From UHGV virus genome UHGV-1376965: a DNA stretch of 64,000 nt; one strand, 5' to 3'. The translations under genes and the position numbers were made by a program. The stretch comes from a virus. Under the pieces are notes generated by a model, which saw only the letters and a program-made list of their open reading frames with translations, searched no databases and was not told the DNA's origin. Shown piece by piece: positions 7,913-28,156 of this stretch (position 1 is its first letter; each line of letters opens with the position of its first letter).

Positions 7913-8794
7913 TCAGCGTCCTGAATCGGTATACCCCCATACAAAACCAGGTTGGATACTAAGGTCTGATAGCTTTTCAATCCCCACCTGTGGAATGAAG
8001 TCGGTAGCCCGAAAGGGCACCCACAGACGGGTAAACGCACCCTCTGTGGACTCCTTTTTGTCCTGGTTTGGGCATTTATGCGGCGGGAGACGAAGACGCA
8101 TTTCACCTTTATCGATGTAGCACGGTAAACCATGTTCGAGCTTTTCATGAGCCAGTCGGATGTGTGCCGCCAGCTTCATAAATTCAGTATCAATGGCCAT
8201 CCGTTTAATCGTTTCATAACGACGCTCAGCCTGATCTTCACGAGTACCGCTAACATCGTTATAAAGCTCACACTGATAAGCGAATTCCCAAAAACGCAAA
8301 TCAACGATCGCTTCTTTGAATTCCGCGTCGTCTTCAGGTGGCAATGCTGCACGGCGCATCTCCAGCATTTCCATTGCCCAACCATCAAGCGGCACGATAC
8401 GCCATTGATAAGGCACGCCCTCTACAGACACCTCAATATCGTCAATGAACGGTTCCACTTCCAGGACCTGGATATCTTCAGCCAGAGCATTCATATCGCA
8501 ATCGTAATAATGCTCTTTACCGCAATGTTTACAGGTGTAGGTGAATGTCTCGACCGGTGTTTCACGGGAGCCGGTAAATATCCACCATAACGCGGTAATC
8601 CGGTCCTGCGCCGTCCATGTCAGGGGATCATGTTTCGCGGGTTCAGCCAGCAAGGCTTTTAAATATGCCGTTGTCTGTTGTTCTTGTTCCTCCGGTGTTA
8701 TCGAGTTGAAACGCATCGCATCAGCAATATTTGGCTGACGGAACTGGATCAATTCAGTTGGCCGCGATGGTAGCGGGAAAAGGGGTAAAAGCAT
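7913..8794 (-). CDS. Hypothetical virion-associated protein with CxxC...C zinc-ribbon-like motif
   Basis: 293-aa ORF upstream of sit on the same strand; contains CKHCGKEHYYDC. Confidence 0.5.
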   Translation of the reverse strand: MLLPLFPLPSRPTELIQFRQPNIADAMRFNSITPEEQEQQTTAYLKALLAEPAKHDPLTWTAQDRITALWWIFTGSRETPVETFTYTCKHCGKEHYYDCDMNALAEDIQVLEVEPFIDDIEVSVEGVPYQWRIVPLDGWAMEMLEMRRAALPPEDDAEFKEAIVDLRFWEFAYQCELYNDVSGTREDQAERRYETIKRMAIDTEFMKLAAHIRLAHEKLEHGLPCYIDKGEMRLRLPPHKCPNQDKKESTEGAFTRLWVPFRATDFIPQVGIEKLSDLSIQPGFVWGYTDSGR

Positions 8795-18837: not shown

Positions 18838-20427
18838 TTACTTAATAAGCAGCGGTACGCCCTGGATACGACGGGCTACGCCAGTCGGGCAGCAGGCCCA
18901 GACTACTTCCCATTTATCGAATTCCGCCTGCGTAACTTTCAGCACATACGGTTCTGTACCGTCAGCATCGGGATCACGAGGAGCCACCAGAGCGCCGGAG
19001 GCGACAAAGCGATCTAAAAGTTTGGTCATCCCTTTAGTCAGGCCAGCCGCAGTAATACCGTCCGGGCTATGCTTCATCTGTCGGGCTAACTGGACAAAGA
19101 AACGACTGATTGCATTCATCAGGGATGGGACGTGCTGGAAGTGCAGATAGTTATCCTGCGTGCAGCAAGTTAAAGCATCGTCGATGATCATCTGGCCAGA
19201 GGTGCCAACAGATACTTTATTGAGACGGCCCTTGACCATTGCTTCTTCGTCCGGGGTATCTTCCGGATACAGCGGTTGAATTGACGCACGAGCAATGACG
19301 GCACGTTCTTCACCAGCCGGTGAGTAATGCCAACCGCCGACATCAGAGTTTTTCTTGACGCCACGAGCTTTCGCCGCATACGCCACGCCAGACAGACCAA
19401 AGACCACACGGGATTGGGTCCATTTGTCTTTGCAGGAGAACGGGTAGTGATAGACAGAACAGCTTACATAATCGGTACCAAGTAAACCGGTATCCTCAAC
19501 AGCTGGTAGTGCTTCTGCGTACGTTAATGTCGGTTTGACATCAAAGAAGCCATCAATCAGGCGATCTGCACAGATTTTACCTAATGCGGTGATAGCCGCA
19601 TTGTCATAGCAGCCCAGGCCAAGAACAGCGGTGTACATGTACGGCGCATTGTTCAGCACTTTCACCGCACGCAGGTACGCAGCTGTTGATATTTTCGACT
19701 GATCACCGTTGGTACCACCAGTGAACGCCAACGATTTTTTATTTGTTACTTTCGCCGTCGAAATCAGCTCTTCATTAACAACCGCGCGCAGATATTTAGA
19801 ACGGGCTTCCAGAGCCGTAGGCAGATAACACAAGCGGCCCATGTCATCTTTCGCTTCTTCCGCCAAAGACACAGTGTGTGTCTCCAGGGTCGTTACCACG
19901 CCGAGCGAAGTTGTCTGGGTCAGTTTTAAGAGGAAGCGTTCATTACCCGCGCTGTCCGCTGTTGCCGTTTCGATGGTTAACTCACGGGTAGGTGAAATAC
20001 ACGGATCACCATCATCAACGTAGATAGCAAAGGCTTCGCCACTATCAAGTTCAATTTCAGAACCGTATGGCAACGCACTGTAAGCCGGTTCGCCTGATTC
20101 ATCGAACATAATAATCGGGAACTTCGCATCATCCGGAACAGCGCGAACAACATAACCAGATGTTTGCTGAATAGCTTCGTATACATGGCGAATTGGTTCG
20201 AACTGTGAGCCGGAAGACGGCTTCAGCGGTTCGCCGAGAACATCTTCGTAATTGGACTCAGTAACCGCAAGAACAGTAAACGGCTTGCCACGCGCAAATA
20301 CGCCAATACCAGCCCACAAGCTGCTATTTAATGCAACACCGGTAGATAACGTCGCATCGGCATTGATCGGGCTAACCGCGACGCCGGATGCATTACCTAA
20401 TGACTGTTGAATTGAATATTGAGACAT
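18838..20427 (-). CDS. Tail sheath protein
   Basis: 529 aa; size and position consistent with a contractile tail sheath (P1 gene 22-like). Confidence 0.65.
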   Translation of the reverse strand: MSQYSIQQSLGNASGVAVSPINADATLSTGVALNSSLWAGIGVFARGKPFTVLAVTESNYEDVLGEPLKPSSGSQFEPIRHVYEAIQQTSGYVVRAVPDDAKFPIIMFDESGEPAYSALPYGSEIELDSGEAFAIYVDDGDPCISPTRELTIETATADSAGNERFLLKLTQTTSLGVVTTLETHTVSLAEEAKDDMGRLCYLPTALEARSKYLRAVVNEELISTAKVTNKKSLAFTGGTNGDQSKISTAAYLRAVKVLNNAPYMYTAVLGLGCYDNAAITALGKICADRLIDGFFDVKPTLTYAEALPAVEDTGLLGTDYVSCSVYHYPFSCKDKWTQSRVVFGLSGVAYAAKARGVKKNSDVGGWHYSPAGEERAVIARASIQPLYPEDTPDEEAMVKGRLNKVSVGTSGQMIIDDALTCCTQDNYLHFQHVPSLMNAISRFFVQLARQMKHSPDGITAAGLTKGMTKLLDRFVASGALVAPRDPDADGTEPYVLKVTQAEFDKWEVVWACCPTGVARRIQGVPLLIK

Positions 20428-20487
20428 AACTTTCCCTGTTATGCGCCCCGCACGGGGGCGCTATGTTAAACGGAGAACTTCCCCTGA

Positions 20488-22194
20488 TTACTCAGAGTCA
20501 CCGGCATCAATCGTGTCGCCGCTAATGAAGTTAAGCCCGCCTTTTTTGGCCATTGTCAGCGTTACACGAGTGAAGTAATCAGCGCCGTTGCGTGGGTGCA
20601 TATCGTTGATAGCCGAACCCCACAGTGTGGTACGGTTGACCAGCGCCGGAGTGGTCGGATGCTGGAACGGGATAGCCGGGACAGCATCACCAGTCACGAA
20701 GCCTGCTTTACCCGGATTTTCATCACGGACGTAGCACAGCACATCCATCGAGCTGAACTGAATGTTCTCTGTCGTTAAGTTCTTACAAATACCAGCAGGT
20801 ACTTCGTACACTTTCACGTTACCGAACAGGGTACCGATGTAGTGAACATACGGAGTCTGGATATAGTCTTCGGCTGGCTGGAAGAAATCCTTCGGCAACT
20901 GTTTGAAGAAAGATGCTGCATCAGCACCAGCAAACATCCCCATCGCACCAGAAGATTTAACGCGCTCAATAATGTCGCGATATACAGTCTGGAATTTGCC
21001 ACGAATGATGGTTGCCCATACATCAAAGGACTGGTTAACCGGCAGAGCGATGTCAAAGGTGTCGGTCGCAAGAGTACGCCAGATCATGATGCGAAGACGC
21101 AGCATATCCTGTTCATGAGACAGGTATTCCTTCAGGGTGCGGAACTGTAGGGAACCCAGGTCCAGACCAAATTCACGCTGTGCTTCATACGCCGCCTGTA
21201 CCGTGTGCTCAGCCGCGATAACGAACTGGCTTGGGAACAGGGTGTATTTCTTCATTTCGTGGTTGATCAGCGGGATCAGCTCAGGAGCGGCTTCAATATT
21301 GATTTCCGTCTCAATTGCGATCTCAGTGCCTTTATCCGGCGCTTTGGAGAACGACAGGGCAATCTGACCAATGTTGTAGTTCAGAGAGCAGGTAACAGTG
21401 ATTTGCTCACCAGCAGCATTAGTAAACGAGTGAAGTAGGCTGCCGGAACCGTTATCAACAACAGACTTAATACGGTTAACGTAGATATTAGTGCGACCTT
21501 TTCGGATTGGTACATTCTGGCCTTCGAAGTCTTCCATCTTGAAGGTTGCGGTTTTGCTGGTGCCATCGGAGCTTGCCACCAGCACATAGCGGCGGCGTAA
21601 CTGGCTGTACACACCGACGGATTGCATGTCCAGAACATCACCAGCAGCATAAGAACCAAAAGAGGAACCTGCCACGTTAAAGACTTCATAGATGTCGGAC
21701 TGGTCACGCGTAACCGGAATGAAGGTACACGCATCAGCGGTAGCTGCCCCCAACTGAACAGGCAGGATCATCGCGAGGAATAAAGGCAGACGCATAACAC
21801 CGTCAGAAACGCTCATCATCTCTGCTGCGACGGATTCCAGCATCGCTTTATTAGTGGCATCCATGCTATTGCGGGTGGACTCAATCAGGCAGTTTTCCAG
21901 CGTCTGGTGGCAGGAGGCCAGAATTTCCGGACGCGGCATAGATTTATGTGCTGCGGCGTAGTCAGCCAGTGCACTTGCCCACGCTGTAGCGATTTGAGCG
22001 GTGGCATTATCAGAGATACCCGCAAAAACCGGGTCTTTACGTGCAGCTTCAAGGATAGATGCGGCACGCGCGGCATCATCTTTAATGAATTGGTTATCAG
22101 TACCGAACTGCGCAGTGCTTGCCCAGCCAAGCACAGCTTTAGAGCGTTTTGCGATATCTGCAATACGATTCTGGTATTCGCGTAAGTTACTCAA
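20488..22194 (-). CDS. Major head (capsid) protein candidate (P1 gene 23-like); ORF track extends to 22215
   Basis: About 568 aa; likely TTG start at 22194 preceded by AAGGAAGAG ribosome-binding site. Confidence 0.55.
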   Translation of the reverse strand: MSNLREYQNRIADIAKRSKAVLGWASTAQFGTDNQFIKDDAARAASILEAARKDPVFAGISDNATAQIATAWASALADYAAAHKSMPRPEILASCHQTLENCLIESTRNSMDATNKAMLESVAAEMMSVSDGVMRLPLFLAMILPVQLGAATADACTFIPVTRDQSDIYEVFNVAGSSFGSYAAGDVLDMQSVGVYSQLRRRYVLVASSDGTSKTATFKMEDFEGQNVPIRKGRTNIYVNRIKSVVDNGSGSLLHSFTNAAGEQITVTCSLNYNIGQIALSFSKAPDKGTEIAIETEINIEAAPELIPLINHEMKKYTLFPSQFVIAAEHTVQAAYEAQREFGLDLGSLQFRTLKEYLSHEQDMLRLRIMIWRTLATDTFDIALPVNQSFDVWATIIRGKFQTVYRDIIERVKSSGAMGMFAGADAASFFKQLPKDFFQPAEDYIQTPYVHYIGTLFGNVKVYEVPAGICKNLTTENIQFSSMDVLCYVRDENPGKAGFVTGDAVPAIPFQHPTTPALVNRTTLWGSAINDMHPRNGADYFTRVTLTMAKKGGLNFISGDTIDAGDSE

Positions 22195-22329
22195 TTTACT
22201 CTTCCTTAAACACAAGGCACTTGTGTGAATCCCTTTTCGGAAGAGATTTTATTGAAAGTCACTTGTTGACTTTCTCGTGACAAGCAATTTTTTTATTTTT
22301 TTCGGGAGTAGGGGAGGAAGGTAAAATCC

Positions 22330-22415
22330 AAGGTGAAATCGTGGCGATTTCACCTTGAAATTTTAGATGGATTTACTTTAAAAACAGTTGGTTAATAGTG
22401 AAATTTGAATGGCGA
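22330..22415. other. parS: parS partition site
   Basis: Heptamer boxes ATTTCAC/GTGAAAT and hexamer TCGCCA (as TGGCGA) in GTGAAATCGTGGCGATTTCACCTTGAAAT and again in TAGTGAAATTTGAATGGCGAAAG, immediately downstream of parB. Confidence 0.75.
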
Positions 22416-22419
22416 AAGT

Positions 22420-23421
22420 TTAAGGCTTCGGCTTTTTATCGAGGCTCTTTCTAAGGATATGCCCAATCATCCTGTCGAGTTCTTCCTGTAGCTCTTTTGA
22501 AAGTCGATTAAACTCATAAGAAAATGCACGGCCTTTCACGCGCTTCCTTGCAAAGCGATCCTTGTCCTCAAATTTCCATAATTCAGTAACTACGGACTTA
22601 TCTTTAGAACCTTTATCCGTGAGTAGTGAGGCTTCCTTTGTTATCAAGCGCAGGATTTTATTTTTAACTTCATCTTCGGCCATTTCTTCAATGGATAAGA
22701 TGTCGTTTATTTCCGGAGATATGTTTTGAATAAGCTGATCAAACTCTAAATTCTTGTTCCCCATTTCGTCGCCAACAGCACAAAGCGTTTTGTAGTCCGA
22801 AAAGGTTAATTCCGACTGAACAGGGAAAAGGGCGACTAATTCTTCCGGAGCACTCGCTGCCTGGAGAGCACGCGTGACCTTCGCCTGAGACAGCCCTTCT
22901 TTGGCTGCAATATCCTTCTGACTCATCCCATCATTTTTCATTCGCATCAAACGCAGACCTATTTCTCGAATGCTGTGCTGCAATGCTGTCTGAACGTCTT
23001 TCGCTAAATTTTGCGCTTCCTGAACGCTGATCTCCTGGTCCGTGACTAAAACCCGCAACCCTACGTTCTCTAAGATGGCAGAAGCTCGACGCCGGGAACC
23101 ATCCAAAATTTCAATTTTCCCTGTAGCCCGTCTAACACCTATTGCAGGGTAAAATTGCTGATGCTTAATAGTGCTTCGGATACTTTTTAATGATTTTGGC
23201 GTAAGAGATGCCTGGTCACGCCCGTTGTTATGCTGATCAACAAAGGTATCGCTTTCTACCTGGTTCGGAGGTATTACCTCTTCAATAAATGTGGCCTGGC
23301 GACCAGTTGATAACTTGAATACCTGCTCGACTCGATCGCCAGAGGCTGAAGAACTATCAAATCCGCTTAATATTGAAGGATTAAGGGTTCGCCCAATTGT
23401 TGGTCTGTTTTTCTTTGACAT
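22420..23421 (-). CDS. parB: Partition protein ParB (centromere-binding)
   Basis: 333 aa; matches my recollection of P1 ParB in length and N-terminus (MSKKNRPTIGRTLNPSILSG). Confidence 0.9.
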   Translation of the reverse strand: MSKKNRPTIGRTLNPSILSGFDSSSASGDRVEQVFKLSTGRQATFIEEVIPPNQVESDTFVDQHNNGRDQASLTPKSLKSIRSTIKHQQFYPAIGVRRATGKIEILDGSRRRASAILENVGLRVLVTDQEISVQEAQNLAKDVQTALQHSIREIGLRLMRMKNDGMSQKDIAAKEGLSQAKVTRALQAASAPEELVALFPVQSELTFSDYKTLCAVGDEMGNKNLEFDQLIQNISPEINDILSIEEMAEDEVKNKILRLITKEASLLTDKGSKDKSVVTELWKFEDKDRFARKRVKGRAFSYEFNRLSKELQEELDRMIGHILRKSLDKKPKP

Positions 23422-23437
23422 GGGGGTTTCTTACTCC

Positions 23438-24634
23438 TCAGTTAGATCTGATAAATTCAATACGGTCAAAAACTGCTTTAGCAAAATCTTCCGCGGCAAT
23501 TCGCGCGTTCTTCAATGCATCAGCACTACCAACATACGTTGCCGGGTTAGCTGAAATAACAGTGTCAAAAGACTCGCCGCAGCGTTCAAAACCGTCAAGG
23601 CGAGGGAGGACGACATCAAGCATATCCCCACCGAACACTTCTTTAGCCAGGCTATGGCAATACTTATGATCTGCCTTGTTACTCAACTTGGACATAAAAC
23701 CAATGTTAGTCGCAAGCTGGCACTCGCAGCCTTCATCCGAAATGAGTTTTACCAACTCAGGAAGGCGGGCAACGTATTTAAGCGATGAGTGGAAATCGAC
23801 AGTTGCTGGCGGCAGAGGTGTAAACAGTATATTGGCCGAGGCCAAAGCATTTTTCAGGAAGGCGTCAAGGTGAGGACCACTATCAACGAGGATAAAGTCA
23901 TAATCGCTCTTCAGCTTATCAATCACATTTTCTTTCAGGACAGCATGGATGTTCTGACCCGGTAGATGCTCATTGCACAGCTCTCTCCAATCGGATGCAA
24001 TAAAGGCATCGTCAATCGACGCAGGCATAACATCAACCCCAGGTACAACAGAAGGAACAATAAACTCCTCTAACAGCTCTTCACGGCTTACATTCTGCAA
24101 CATAGCCTGTGCAGATGTTGCGTTTACGATACCAATAGAGTGTTTATGGCTTAAAAACATCGTTGCTGAAGATTGCGGATCAAGGTCAATAACCAGAATC
24201 CTTAAATCTTCCATCAGAAGATGAGGGTGGGCACGCATTGCATGCGCCAGAGAAACCGTCGATACAGTTTTTGACACACCGCCTTTAAGATTGGAGATGA
24301 AAATCACATACGCTTCGCTGTAGCGATCCCGGTATTTTGGCACTCCGCGATGTTCATATATGTCAATGATGTTCTGAATTGACATCGCATATTTCATTGA
24401 AGAGCCAGCAGGGCGTTTATCGAAAACATAACCCTTTTCTTCCATTTCACTTACGGCATAGTCAACGTTCGCTCGAGTCAGTAGAGGCAATTTTGCCAGT
24501 GCCGCTTTCGCATAGACCTGGTAAAACTCGTTCGCGTGTAGCTCATCCTTTTGCAACTGTACTTGTTCAGTCAGAACATTGAGCATTCTGTTTGCTCTTT
24601 GAGCAACCTTGTGAAGCTGGCTGGAATCACTCAT
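23438..24634 (-). CDS. parA: Partition ATPase ParA (long N-terminal type)
   Basis: 398 aa; deviant Walker A KGGVSKT; upstream of parB in the same operon. Confidence 0.9.
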   Translation of the reverse strand: MSDSSQLHKVAQRANRMLNVLTEQVQLQKDELHANEFYQVYAKAALAKLPLLTRANVDYAVSEMEEKGYVFDKRPAGSSMKYAMSIQNIIDIYEHRGVPKYRDRYSEAYVIFISNLKGGVSKTVSTVSLAHAMRAHPHLLMEDLRILVIDLDPQSSATMFLSHKHSIGIVNATSAQAMLQNVSREELLEEFIVPSVVPGVDVMPASIDDAFIASDWRELCNEHLPGQNIHAVLKENVIDKLKSDYDFILVDSGPHLDAFLKNALASANILFTPLPPATVDFHSSLKYVARLPELVKLISDEGCECQLATNIGFMSKLSNKADHKYCHSLAKEVFGGDMLDVVLPRLDGFERCGESFDTVISANPATYVGSADALKNARIAAEDFAKAVFDRIEFIRSN

Positions 24635-24774
24635 CGAAAGTCATCCTTTATGCTGTATTTTTGAATTTAATTAAAAATGCTGCATAAAATAATAATGTAT
24701 GCGTAGATGCTTGTACATAGCATTCTCTGCATGTTTGGTTCATTTTGCACGATTGAGAGTTACAAGAAAGGCAC

Positions 24775-24800
24775 AAAAAAGCCCCGTTCAGGGGCATCAG
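24775..24800 (-). terminator. Rho-independent terminator after the T5orf172-like gene
   Basis: Minus strand reads GCCCCTGAACGGGGC then TTTTTTG. Confidence 0.7.
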
Positions 24801-24802
24801 TG

Positions 24803-25612
24803 TTATTTGCTAAGAGCAGCGAATAATCGTTCGAAATCGATAGTATCTATAGCACGCGTAAGCGCCGGAAGTTCAGCCTCAAAGTACCCGTGTCGATCGT
24901 AAAAGAAGGGACCGAAGAGCGAGGCATGTTGGATTATACTTCGCCCCAGCCCGGACACACAGTTAAGCCCATTACCGGCTAAAAGGCTAAAAAACTTCTC
25001 TGGATTATCGTGGTAAAGCTGGGAATCAATGGTGGCGGTTAACTCTTCCATAGGGAAGCACACCCGCCCTGTATCCCAGGGATATTTAGTCCGAAGCATA
25101 AACATTGCTTTCAGCAATTCACATTGAGCGAGGATCGCGTCCGGTTCATAGCCAGATATGGAGACATAAGCCACGTCCCTCATTCCTGCGTCATCTTTGA
25201 AAGTCACGATAGAAGTAACATCCAGCTCTTTTTCGAAAGAGCAAGCAGCATCTACTGGACGCTGAAGTAAATCATTCGACTTAATGCGCTCGAGAATCCC
25301 TCCCCACATATCATTTAGATATTCGATATGAGCCAAAACCTTATCAAGACACTCTCGTGTAAACCATTCAGTATGCCCGCCACCGACGCTTTTCTCCCAC
25401 GGCGCATTCCAGGGGAAAAAGGTTGCGTGTAAAGCCCGCTCAAGATTAACCATTGCCAAACGCGTACCACGATAGACCCGTGAAAGCGCAAAATCGGGAC
25501 TCACTTGTAGCCCTTTAAACCGTGCCAATGGACCACATGAAATGCCGATTTTAAAAGTATCTCCGTTCTCTGGCACCAGAACGTAGAGGTAGTGTTGTTT
25601 CTCTTCTTGCAT
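24803..25612 (-). CDS. T5orf172 / GIY-YIG-superfamily domain protein with unknown C-terminal domain
   Basis: 269 aa; N-terminus YLYVLVPENGDTFKIGIS ... GGGHTEWF resembles the T5orf172 family; own terminator; sits between incA iterons and the par promoter. Confidence 0.65.
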   Translation of the reverse strand: MQEEKQHYLYVLVPENGDTFKIGISCGPLARFKGLQVSPDFALSRVYRGTRLAMVNLERALHATFFPWNAPWEKSVGGGHTEWFTRECLDKVLAHIEYLNDMWGGILERIKSNDLLQRPVDAACSFEKELDVTSIVTFKDDAGMRDVAYVSISGYEPDAILAQCELLKAMFMLRTKYPWDTGRVCFPMEELTATIDSQLYHDNPEKFFSLLAGNGLNCVSGLGRSIIQHASLFGPFFYDRHGYFEAELPALTRAIDTIDFERLFAALSK

Positions 25613-25644
25613 ATCAATACCACTGCTTGATGAGAACCGCGCAA

Positions 25645-25896
25645 ATGTTGACTATGCGCGAAGGTTAATGTGAATAGTTGACTATGCGCGATGTGACTAC
25701 AGTCAAAAGTTGACTGTAGTCGATTTAACTCCACCAAAGATCGACTATGTAAGATATTGTCGGGAGAAACGTTGACTATACGCGATGAAATGCCCCTAAA
25801 AGCCATCTCAATAGCGACTTGCAGAATATTGACGCCAGCAAAAATCCACCAGCGTCAACGAATGTCGCCTATAGTCAACTTCTCGCTATCGCATAT
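25645..25896. repeat. incA-like iteron array downstream of repA (about 9 copies, both orientations)
   Basis: Repeated TTGACTATGCGCG / CGCGTATAGTCAA-type units. Confidence 0.8.
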
Positions 25897-25904
25897 AGTC
25901 AATA

Positions 25905-26825
25905 TTATGGATTGCGCTTATGGATCTGGAAGCCGATTTTCCTGCCGTTTTTTATCTCTGAAAATTTAAGATATTCAATAGCTTCCAAATCTTTCATGGC
26001 TTTTCTGATAACGCTATTTTGCACGCTAACGGATGATTTGAGATTAAGCCTCGCTCTAAGGCGCTCAATGCTGACAGGTGCCGGGTTGGCGGGTAGAGCC
26101 TCAAAGAATGTATACAGTACCTTGGCCGTCTCTTTGCGCCCTAGTTTATCCAGCATCTTCAGCTTCAGGATTCGCTTATAGTCAACATAGTAAAGTTCAG
26201 ATAGCTGTTTCTGCGGCTGGATCTCGATAACATCAAGCTCGGTATTCAGGCTGCTATATGCCAACAAGTTGACGTTAATGTTATTGAGATGACCTTTTGC
26301 CGCCGGGAAGCGGAATTTGACAACTGTCTGCTGAATGCGTGTCAGAGAGTCATCAATACTTTTACGGAACGCCTTTGAAAGGCGCTTACGTGGATAGCCG
26401 CATCGATCGGCAAACTCGGAGAATGGCAGGGTGATTATGCCGTCATCATCAGGTGCGTAGTCAAACAACGCGGAGGTTATGCCCACCCACACCTTAAAAT
26501 CAGTATCCATATCCAGGCGTGGACCATGAATTTCAATTCCCTCATAGCCTTCCTGCTCAACAATTTTGAGGCTTGATAGTTCTTCAGTTGCGTTCGTTGT
26601 GTTTGTTGTAACTGACGATCCGCGACGTAGCGCCACATTGGTAGATTTTAAGGTTGGCACAAACACACCTAAGCGCAACAAAGCGATGGGTTGTATAGTG
26701 CTGTTGTTATTGGGCTTCAGGCTGTGGATTTCTCCTGTATTTCCTGCAACTTCTTCAACGCTAAGGAAGCCTTTACTTTCTTCCGGCATCACGGTTTCTC
26801 CATGTGTGGCGCGGCCTGACGTCAA
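25905..26825 (-). CDS. repA: Plasmid replication initiator RepA (P1/RepFIB family); true start may be 26789
   Basis: 306-aa ORF with conserved GPRLDMDTDFKVW segment, flanked by iteron arrays. Confidence 0.85.
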   Translation of the reverse strand: MTSGRATHGETVMPEESKGFLSVEEVAGNTGEIHSLKPNNNSTIQPIALLRLGVFVPTLKSTNVALRRGSSVTTNTTNATEELSSLKIVEQEGYEGIEIHGPRLDMDTDFKVWVGITSALFDYAPDDDGIITLPFSEFADRCGYPRKRLSKAFRKSIDDSLTRIQQTVVKFRFPAAKGHLNNINVNLLAYSSLNTELDVIEIQPQKQLSELYYVDYKRILKLKMLDKLGRKETAKVLYTFFEALPANPAPVSIERLRARLNLKSSVSVQNSVIRKAMKDLEAIEYLKFSEIKNGRKIGFQIHKRNP

Positions 26826-27085
26826 TTTGGATGGCTGTTATCAACAGCTGTGAATATTCAGACTCTAAAATCGCTTACAGTCAATGTTTCTGTCGCGTAT
26901 AGTCAACAATAAATCGCGTGCAGTCAACAATAAATCGTGCACAGTCAACATAAAATCGCGTATAGTCAATGTTGATCCCATTTCAGGCCAGTAATGACGC
27001 GGCTTACAGCGATCCGGGATCTTCTTTGGATCTTCCTAGGTTCTCTTTAGGATCTGTTTATTGGATCTATGCTGTGGATAAGTTG
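26826..27085. other. Plasmid origin region (oriR-like): DnaA-box-like site, five direct iterons (incC-like), GATC cluster
   Basis: TGTTATCAACAG near 26838; five CGCGTATAGTCAAC-type iterons at 26868-26976; at least six GATC sites at 26990-27080. Confidence 0.75.
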
Positions 27086-27089
27086 AATA

Positions 27090-27110
27090 AACCGGCCAAC
27101 AAAGCCGGTT
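27090..27110 (-). terminator. Rho-independent terminator
   Basis: CCGGCCAACAAAGCCGG hairpin; minus strand followed by TTTATT. Confidence 0.55.
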
Positions 27111-27124
27111 GGAAGGAAGTCATA

Positions 27125-27517
27125 TTATTCTACGCTTTCGATAAGAAGACCATGTTCATAACATTTAAGCTCATCGCCTTCATACAGGAATTGGTATCCA
27201 ACACCACCATCTTCATGGACATTAGGGAATAACTCATAACTCACTGAAGAGCAAATTACACCAATGCAGCGATCAACGCCTTCTCGTTCTTCAGTGCTGA
27301 AAAAATCCTCTTCGGTAAGAACATGAGTACATTGCTCATCAGCATAGGTCGGAAATACATGCTCAATGCAATCCGGGTGTTTTAAACCAAGCTGATCGGC
27401 AAGCTCGAAAGCACGACGGTATTGTTCAGATCCTGGCTTGCCAACAGTGATTTGCTCAATTTTGTAGATTGAAGTCGCTTTGTTGATAGTTTGCTTTACT
27501 GTTACTTTATCAGACAT
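27125..27517 (-). CDS. Hypothetical protein
   Basis: 130-aa ORF, last gene of this minus-strand operon. Confidence 0.5.
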   Translation of the reverse strand: MSDKVTVKQTINKATSIYKIEQITVGKPGSEQYRRAFELADQLGLKHPDCIEHVFPTYADEQCTHVLTEEDFFSTEEREGVDRCIGVICSSVSYELFPNVHEDGGVGYQFLYEGDELKCYEHGLLIESVE

Positions 27518-27528
27518 AAAAATCCCTT

Positions 27529-27780
27529 TTAGTTACCGCTAATAGCTCGGTTGTAATCATTAACGTTGCGATTCTTCCTGTTAATCCCCATCAGCATCGT
27601 TTCTGTATCGAGGATATACGCTGGCAGATCATCAAAATATTCACTGCTAAACTCTGGCATCCTGCACATAAATGCACTTTTGGGGGCAGGGTGGTTAACC
27701 TTTGTCGGCGTCGGCGTTAAATTCGCTGATCGACTGCCGGAGCAACCGCTGAGTGTCAGCAGGAATGCGCTGGCGAACAT
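27529..27780 (-). CDS. Outer-membrane lipoprotein, o-spanin (Rz1)-like
   Basis: Lipobox LTLSGC followed by Pro/Thr-rich segment; starts in a different frame inside the 3' end of the upstream gene. ORF track gives 27529..27861. Confidence 0.6.
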   Translation of the reverse strand: MFASAFLLTLSGCSGSRSANLTPTPTKVNHPAPKSAFMCRMPEFSSEYFDDLPAYILDTETMLMGINRKNRNVNDYNRAISGN

Positions 27781-28117
27781 TACCCGCCGCAACCAGTTGT
27801 TTCTGAACTTCAGCTTTTCGTTCCATTTGCCTGTCAGCATATTTGGCTTGTTCTGATTCATTTTTCACTTCCTGGCTGTGAAAATGTTGCTCTGCTTTGT
27901 TCATCGTCTCAATGGTCTGGTTAAGATCCATTATTGACTTATCACGTTCCTTAACAGCCTGATCAAGACTGCCAATTTTCTCCATGGCTTGCTTTAGCTG
28001 ATGACGTTCCCATGCAAACCCAGCACCAACAAGTGCGCAAATCAGAACAAGAACACCAGTAGCAGCAAGTTTCTCCTTCAAAGACAAAGCTGTTTTTAAC
28101 GTAGAAAAGAATGACAT
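27695..28117 (-). CDS. Membrane-anchored coiled-coil protein, i-spanin (Rz)-like
   Basis: N-terminal transmembrane segment then charged coiled coil; AGGAGG ribosome-binding site before the ATG at 28117; 3' end overlaps the lipoprotein gene. Confidence 0.6.
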   Translation of the reverse strand: MSFFSTLKTALSLKEKLAATGVLVLICALVGAGFAWERHQLKQAMEKIGSLDQAVKERDKSIMDLNQTIETMNKAEQHFHSQEVKNESEQAKYADRQMERKAEVQKQLVAAGNVRQRIPADTQRLLRQSISEFNADADKG

Positions 28118-28156
28118 GCCTTCCTCCTGAAGAAAAATTATCAATGAAGTCCTTTG

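Follow-up and report, generated by a model that had tools for sequence, protein, structure and literature searches.

A T5orf172-family gene is a long-standing, non-essential passenger of the replicon cassette of P1-like phage-plasmids

The T5orf172 proteins described in the literature fall into three groups: homing endonuclease genes (HEGs) located at the boundaries of genetic exchange, Odn-type nucleases, and domesticated repressors such as CapR (PMC10448857; PMC8263062). The Odn-type nucleases are steered to the origin of a satellite by a captured initiator domain, and some of them are frameshifted in many isolates (PMC10448857; PMC8263062). Here we analyse a gene of this kind present in the window, by which we mean the whole 64,000-nucleotide stretch of the virus genome UHGV-1376965. 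Our results show that it is a long-standing, non-essential passenger of the replicon cassette of P1-like phage-plasmids.

As occurs with Odn (ICP1 gp88) and the T5orf172/RepA_N nucleases, the window protein combines a T5orf172 domain with a second domain, whose predicted fold here weakly resembles the DNA-binding part of an initiator (PMC8263062, PMC10448857). The gene is also, like Odn, accessory, disrupted in some alleles and associated with the swapping of replicon modules. However, the DNA-binding domain of Odn is N-terminal, of the RepA_N type and clearly similar in sequence to the RepA of its target, whereas the extra domain of the window protein is C-terminal, has no sequence similarity to any RepA and only weakly resembles the Rep3-type WH1 fold. 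Moreover, Odn is encoded by a lytic phage and directed against a satellite, while the window gene lies inside a plasmid replicon, adjoining its own iterons.

The T5orf172/GIY-YIG HEGs (the ICP1 HEGs, and the T4 Seg proteins and I-TevI) share with the window protein the combination of a nuclease and a specificity domain. Like the window gene, free-standing HEGs are intergenic, carry their own signals, sit at exchange boundaries, are variably present in close relatives and are often degenerate. Most of the described T5orf172 HEGs, however, carry CapR/DUF723/DUF4397 zinc-finger DNA-binding domains (PMC10448857), which are absent from the window protein, and the window gene, unlike HEGs, was found in one genomic slot only. 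A homing gene would be expected to leave intact, uninvaded alleles and to move independently of its flanks; the one absence allele that we could resolve (in plasmid L055) is a deletion, and all the full-length members were found between the incA-like iterons and the par promoter (Ppar) of P1-like elements. The resemblance to SLX1 and the GIY-YIG structure-specific nucleases, at 11-16% sequence identity, is one of fold only, and the window protein has neither an SLX4-type partner nor a RING domain.

The gene has been reported before. It corresponds, at 96-99% identity, to the 'GIY-YIG nuclease family protein' or 'unknown gp57' of RCS47, SJ46 and JL22. In P1-like elements it replaces the P1 repA together with repA' (PMC9603915), and Venturini et al. 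described '2 orfs inserted between repA and parA', of 1270 bp, in pSvP1 (PMC6906374), an insert that is probably the same gene. The reports on RCS47, SJ46, JL22 and pSvP1 contain no analysis of its function, its family, its position in other replicon types or its loss. The nuclease family and the existence of the gene are already known; the C-terminal domain, the niche inside a replicon and the evolutionary pattern are new.

The gene and its replicon cassette

The original prediction placed a 269-aa gene with its own terminator in the 1.27-kb gap between repA and parA. This was borne out, since the reading frame falls within the proposed interval (24775-25645) and 1270 bp separate the stop of repA (25905) from the start of parA (24634). 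The features of the region are:

23438..24634, parA (reading-frame list)
24635..24736, minus strand, P1-like par promoter/operator region (blastn against P1; P1 annotation of Ppar and the ParA operator)
24737..26986, minus strand, whole exchangeable replicon cassette with origin iterons, repA', incA-like iterons, T5orf172 gene and terminator (blastn against P1; inherited as a unit; swapped between the elements L003 and L004)
24775..24795, minus strand, intrinsic-terminator-like hairpin plus T-run, ending the transcription unit of the gene ahead of the par promoter (scan and sequence)
24803..25612, minus strand, coding sequence, stop codon included, of the T5orf172 plus winged-helix protein (reading-frame list; 269 aa, ATG start)
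25647..25903, no strand assigned, incA-like iteron array downstream of repA' (repeat finder and pattern search)
25905..26789, minus strand, repA', p0111-type initiator of the Rep3 family, 294 aa from the ATG at 26789 (Pfam Rep3_C and Rep3_N; RCS47 annotation); listed as 25905..26825 among the reading frames
26871..26970, plus strand, five origin iterons with a spacing of 21-22 bp (repeat finder and pattern search)

We take the 269-aa frame to be a genuine gene because its homologs, at 24-44% identity, keep the frame open and align over the full length, and because pN/pS is 0.34 among 30 alleles. The protein matches PHROG 2876, annotated as of unknown function. Directly past the stop codon lies the G+C-rich, terminator-like hairpin GCCCCTGAACGGGGC, followed by TTTTTT (24795-24781) and a T tail reaching to about 24775. 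A hairpin also occupies the equivalent site in two related elements, L006, where a T-run comes after it, and L003, where none does. An Rfam search over 24500-27200 found no RNA family.

Two other parts of the prediction did not hold: that the repeats upstream of the gene are the incA iterons of P1, and that the gene is cargo placed into the canonical P1 replicon. Comparison with P1 (NC_005856) by blastn gave homology over 20001-24736 (99.4%) and 26987-31000 (97%), and between these blocks a different cassette, the 2250 bp of the window at 24737-26986, stands in place of 1491 bp of P1. The repeats at 25647-25903 differ in sequence from those of P1 and belong to a RepA (RepA') that is 42% identical to P1 RepA. 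In megablast searches of phage records, a 3.5-kb stretch was 98.7-99.4% identical in RCS47, SJ46, JL22, phi456 and some records labelled 'P1', and reference P1 matched over the parB-parA part only. The window replicon is of the 'p0111' type (SJ46/RCS47/JL22), and not a canonical P1 replicon with an insertion. The view that reference P1 lacks the gene and that its incA is closely trailed by the par promoter was correct; the distance, from the P1 annotation, is about 190 bp.

The left end of the cassette, at 24737, is 66 bp past the stop codon of the gene and 19 bp upstream of the Ppar -35 box. At the other end (26986/26987) the break lies within oriR, with the five origin iterons on one side and the P1-like GATC/DnaA-box part on the other, and corresponds in P1 to the position just beyond the incC iterons. 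Since this break is inside oriR, the P1-like GATC/DnaA part was kept and the iterons, repA, the incA equivalent and the T5orf172 gene were exchanged together. Note that only the initiator-specific half of the origin was exchanged at this point.

The iteron consensus in the window is TCGYGYAYAGTCAAC. A pattern search gave 24 matches against 7.4 expected, and all those with two or fewer mismatches were inside the replicon. In the incA-like array, two iterons (25865, 25889) point one way and at least four (25771, 25709, 25677, 25647) are inverted, the last of which ends 34 nt before the ATG of the gene; this layout is common to L003, L004 and L006. Another iteron copy, with one mismatch to the consensus, is found within the repA' coding sequence at 26172-26186 (+), where its role, if it has any, could be for example in autoregulation or handcuffing. 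An apparent extra iteron flanking the gene at 24738-24752 was rejected, as its three mismatches are at chance level (about seven such matches are expected in the window). Separately, the motif TCAA(T/A)CGTGCAA occurs immediately ahead of the par promoter in the window (24738-24770), in L006 (6020-6060) and also in L055, and is not present in P1, L003 or L004.

The three closest full-length relatives of the protein, P0004 (from L003), P0010 (L004/L005) and P0011 (L006), all occupy the repA-parA interval of diverged P1-like elements, whose gp23 is 80-81% identical to that of the window. Together with the window protein they align end to end, C-terminal domain included, and three RepA/iteron types accompany the family in this one slot. 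The window and L003 have p0111-like RepAs (84% identical) and an identical iteron sequence; L004 has an IncY-like RepA, 83% identical to P1 RepA, with P1-type iterons; and L006 has a third RepA/iteron type. L003 and L004 have a common backbone (gp23 99.5%, ParA 99.7%) and different cassettes, with the break 63-85 bp past the stop codon of the gene. As these two elements differ by the same kind of cassette, the gene is part of the replicon cassette in every type seen. p0111-like and IncY-like replicons thus alternate also in a second, diverged P1-like lineage, that of L003 and L004. The gene call of the L003 homolog is overextended by 41 codons through the iteron array (8001-8123), which gives repeated 'AYSQH' peptides; its true start is probably the ATG at 8124.

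The two domains of the protein

The protein was divided into two domains:

25298..25612, minus strand, N-terminal nuclease domain (about residues 1-105), T5orf172/GIY-YIG fold
24806..25252, minus strand, C-terminal domain (about residues 121-269), hypervariable, predicted to be winged-helix-like, restricted to P1-like elements

The N-terminus reads as had been quoted (MQEEKQHYLYVLVPENGDTFKIGIS...GGGHTEWF), and the proposed resemblance to the T5orf172 branch of the GIY-YIG superfamily was confirmed by a match to Pfam T5orf172 (PF10544) over residues 8-85, with 26.9 bits (E 7e-6) against a gathering cut-off of 20 bits. Weaker matches to MUG113 and to the URI fold belong to the same superfamily, and PHROG 681, 'endonuclease', was matched over residues 4-100 at E 7e-9. 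The structure prediction that had been proposed as a check gave the same answer: the model of the N-terminal half has the alpha/beta fold of the GIY-YIG domains and matches that of SLX1. A profile of this domain run against solved structures found no sequence relatives.

Twelve residues (Y10, K21, G23, R31, D40, S44, E58, L61, H62, E82, W83 and F84) are invariant in 14-15 homologs. The tyrosine, arginine and glutamate of the GIY-YIG catalytic set, assigned from the spacing in I-TevI, are kept in these homologs as Y10, R31 and E82, and R31, E82 and the GIY tyrosine are unchanged down to 19-25% identity; the second motif is FKIG and not YIG. The spacing Y10...(F20-K21-I22-G23)...R31...E82 appears to parallel GIY...YIG...Arg...Glu of I-TevI. 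In the Odn study, mutation of the equivalent glutamate (E180A) served as the catalytic knock-out (PMC8263062). Judged from its sequence, the N-terminal region would be a T5orf172-type catalytic nuclease domain.

The C-terminal part had been called unrecognised, and indeed it matches no known family. In an exhaustive phmmer scan of 1.84 billion representatives, the C-terminal 150 aa had no homolog beyond their own family, and the N-terminal domain matched many T5orf172 proteins at 33-43% identity. By sequence, the C-terminal domain matched no solved structure (best E 0.21). Its predicted structure is a winged helix, whose top structural neighbours, all weak, are plasmid Rep initiators, then the winged helices of ORC/Cdc6; with Foldseek against BFVD, a COG5527 plasmid replication initiator ranked first (E 0.08, probability 0.77). 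Since such scores are borderline and the winged helix is a widespread fold, we treat a Rep-initiator-like winged helix as a lead from modelling and not as a finding. Recent capture of a RepA DNA-binding domain was considered and rejected, as hhalign found no match between the C-domain alignment and any of five RepA types.

Between the window and L003, protein identity is 62% in the N-domain and 33% in the C-domain; at the nucleotide level it is mostly 71-83% in repA and 71-84% in parA, against 52-72% for the part encoding the N-domain and 38-57% for the part encoding the C-domain. The C-domain probably sets target specificity, by binding DNA. One indirect argument speaks against its recognising the iterons of its own replicon, since the window and L003 have the same iteron sequence and C-domains only 33% identical.

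Distribution, loss and evolutionary rate

By tblastn, the protein was found in 401 plasmids of PLSDB, always at 90% identity or more; 392 of about 401 records have the whole cassette, and some 150 further P1-type plasmids match over the parA start and Ppar only. Among 5426 complete E. coli genomes, 412 carry the gene, 403 of them with at least 80% of it. A scan of GTDB species representatives gave a single locus, with the same allele type, and 5.8 billion clustered proteins included one diverged full-length relative, P0004 (44% identity). More distant N-domain relatives, P0012 and P0013 (L052 3516-4990; L053 3783-7983), were found next to an HTH repressor of the prophage type and in a stretch of chromosome that also contains Mrr_cat, WYL and Hypoth_Ymh genes. 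These proteins represent a broader class of proteins of about 290 aa, with an N-terminal T5orf172 domain and variable C-termini.

Comparison of the repA-parA intervals, as originally proposed, showed that the gene is not a constant feature. P1 lacks it, as do two Salmonella plasmids, L054 and L055, and the presence/absence polymorphism affects a single locus among close relatives (window versus P1; L006 versus L055). L055 and L006 have RepAs 99% identical and ParAs 95% identical. In L055 the gene stops short after its 11th codon: the ribosome-binding region and the ATG remain, the 11 codons read MNQTNDLYLYI (MNQINELYLYV in L006), and the L006 terminator T-run follows directly. Because the start of the gene remains there, joined to the T-run, its sequence identifies the absence as a deletion. 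No remnant above chance was found in the 175-bp incA-Ppar spacer of P1 or in L054, and the P1 gap is therefore uninformative as to whether it is an uninvaded site.

Since a gene-less plasmid with an almost identical RepA retains the first codons, the gene looks ancestral and its absence derived, at least in the L006/L055 lineage. The original reading as inserted cargo did not survive: the gene always travels with its repA', and the family occupies the same slot beside three RepA types. The simplest history is that of an ancestral gene with repeated loss.

Inactive alleles are also frequent. IMG/VR contains 45 loci with the p0111-type allele, of which 43 contain the gene at full length and without gaps; in the other two it is cut or interrupted. 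Nonsense mutations arose independently three times among the full-length copies, as W68*, S112* (five copies) and Q228* (the SJ46 contig), and in total about 9 of the 45 copies are disrupted or truncated, with some 80% intact. In L048 (6294-8058) the gene has an internal deletion and is interrupted by an IS200/IS605-type element (TnpB plus Y1 transposase), in one E. coli plasmid (NZ_CP100998.1, 61378-62964) it is interrupted by IS1, and a 3' fragment occurs among the E. coli genomes. In the same IMG/VR loci, no disruption of RepA, parA or parB was seen.

The rates of evolution (Nei-Gojobori) follow the same pattern. The pN/pS value of the gene, similar in both halves, is 7 to more than 100 times that of its neighbours repA (0.045), parA (0.002) and parB (0.054). 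From these values the gene appears to be under purifying selection that is much weaker, or more diversifying, than that on its neighbours. Whereas a maintenance gene would be indispensable, conserved and under strong purifying selection, here we found absences, disrupted alleles and a pN/pS of 0.34. Plainly, the gene is not needed for replication or partition, and it is neither present in all P1-family members nor required by them, as the original prediction implied.

The window allele (best PLSDB match 99.3%) carries two private arginine losses, R161L (25131) and R226I (24936), not seen in the 43 IMG/VR copies. We discarded them as a sign of attenuation, because two of the six window-private SNPs in 12.8 kb are too few.

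Expression and possible roles

In all four elements (window, L003, L004 and L006) the ATG is located 25-36 nt past the last, inverted iteron of the incA-like array. No clear canonical terminator was found between repA and the gene, and given these two observations transcription probably starts within, or reads through, the RepA-bound iteron array. A sigma-70 scan upstream of the ATG, on the strand of the gene, gave no promoter-like site, so the coupling of expression to RepA is something that we infer. Read-through from the autoregulated repA promoter, or a start inside the iterons, would allow RepA occupancy to gate expression of the gene, which would be highest when RepA is low, for example on entering a new cell. 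Since no C1 operator was found near the gene, expression in the plasmid state is plausible.

The traits that the gene has in common with HEGs and Odn, namely two domains, a position at the edge of a cassette, variable presence, inactivation and a fast-evolving specificity domain, favour a site-specific nuclease of the conflict or selfish kind, with related or rival elements as its targets. We hold this reading tentatively, as one with somewhat less than an even chance of being right. The protein would be a two-domain DNA endonuclease, with an N-terminal T5orf172 cutter and a fast-evolving C-terminal winged-helix specificity domain, that cuts the DNA of rival or related mobile elements. It might act in the style of a free-standing homing endonuclease, in which case the cut would be repaired from the cassette-bearing genome and the cassette would spread, or in the style of Odn, in which case the replicon of a competitor would be disabled.

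Another possibility, which we consider rather unlikely, is anti-phage defence or exclusion. The protein would then be a lysogenic-conversion nuclease directed against unrelated phages, or act by abortive infection, and its position in the replicon would be incidental. Fast evolution and frequent loss are typical of defence genes, the terminator and the lack of a C1 operator make expression in the lysogen plausible, and the distant N-domain relatives lie by a prophage repressor and in the chromosomal Mrr_cat/WYL region. However, PADLOC-DB 2.0 gave 0 families at E up to 1, every member is in one replicon slot and not in the known variable cargo regions of P1-like elements (regions in PMC9603915), and the gene is co-inherited with the RepA type. 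A search of NCBIfam with the 269-aa protein gave no match.

A more specific proposal seems to us unlikely: that of an origin-directed nuclease embedded in the replicon, steered by its Rep-WH1-like domain, switched on when the iterons are free of RepA, and cutting the replication/incompatibility region of a resident rival of the P1 type. If true, it would amount to nuclease-based plasmid exclusion or incompatibility that drives the repeated swaps of replicon cassettes, and would help to account for the p0111 cassette being more widespread among P1-like plasmids than the classical IncY cassette.

Slightly less probable still is a decaying relic, an old gene, selfish or accessory, that now does little or nothing and hitch-hikes with a successful cassette. 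The raised pN/pS (7 to more than 100 times that of the neighbours), the roughly 9 in 45 disrupted or truncated IMG/VR copies, the deletion in L055 and the absence from P1 all fit decay. Yet pN/pS is still well under 1 and about 80% of copies remain intact, an open frame and the catalytic residues persist in lineages whose proteins are 24-44% identical, and 403 of 412 gene-bearing E. coli genomes keep at least 80% of the gene.

We think it improbable, a shade more so than decay, that the protein is a domesticated, non-cutting DNA-binding regulator, similar to CapR, which binds close to the iterons or to the par promoter and adjusts copy number, incompatibility or par expression. The conserved position between the incA-like iterons and Ppar would suit such a role, as would the modelled winged-helix-like C-domain with Rep initiators as its nearest folds, and the accounts of CapR in PMC10448857 and PMC8096241 provide the precedent of a T5orf172-related protein as a repressor. 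Against it, R31, E82 and the GIY tyrosine, needless for pure DNA binding, stay invariant to 19-25% identity, the iterons of the window and L003 are identical while their C-domains have diverged to 33%, and knock-outs are frequent in intact, apparently maintained plasmids. Finally, a necessary role in the replication control or partition of the p0111-type replicon, suggested by the constant linkage to repA' and the place between iterons and par, is close to refuted by the nonsense and IS-disrupted alleles in otherwise intact plasmids, by L055, which lacks the gene with a 99%-identical RepA, and by P1, which manages without it.

P1-like phage-plasmids are common carriers of resistance genes, and this gene carries only an automatic name. 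If the conflict reading is right and the protein is active against rival replicons, it would represent a new mechanism in plasmid incompatibility and competition and provide a cause for the modular replacement of replicons; the Odn principle, a nuclease guided by an initiator-like domain, would then extend from conflict between phage and satellite to conflict between plasmids. The hypervariable C-domain might supply natural specificity variants on a small nuclease scaffold. Moreover, the textbook layout of P1, in which incA is directly followed by par, may have arisen by reduction of a wider ancestral arrangement, with the deletion itself seen only in the L006/L055 replicon type.
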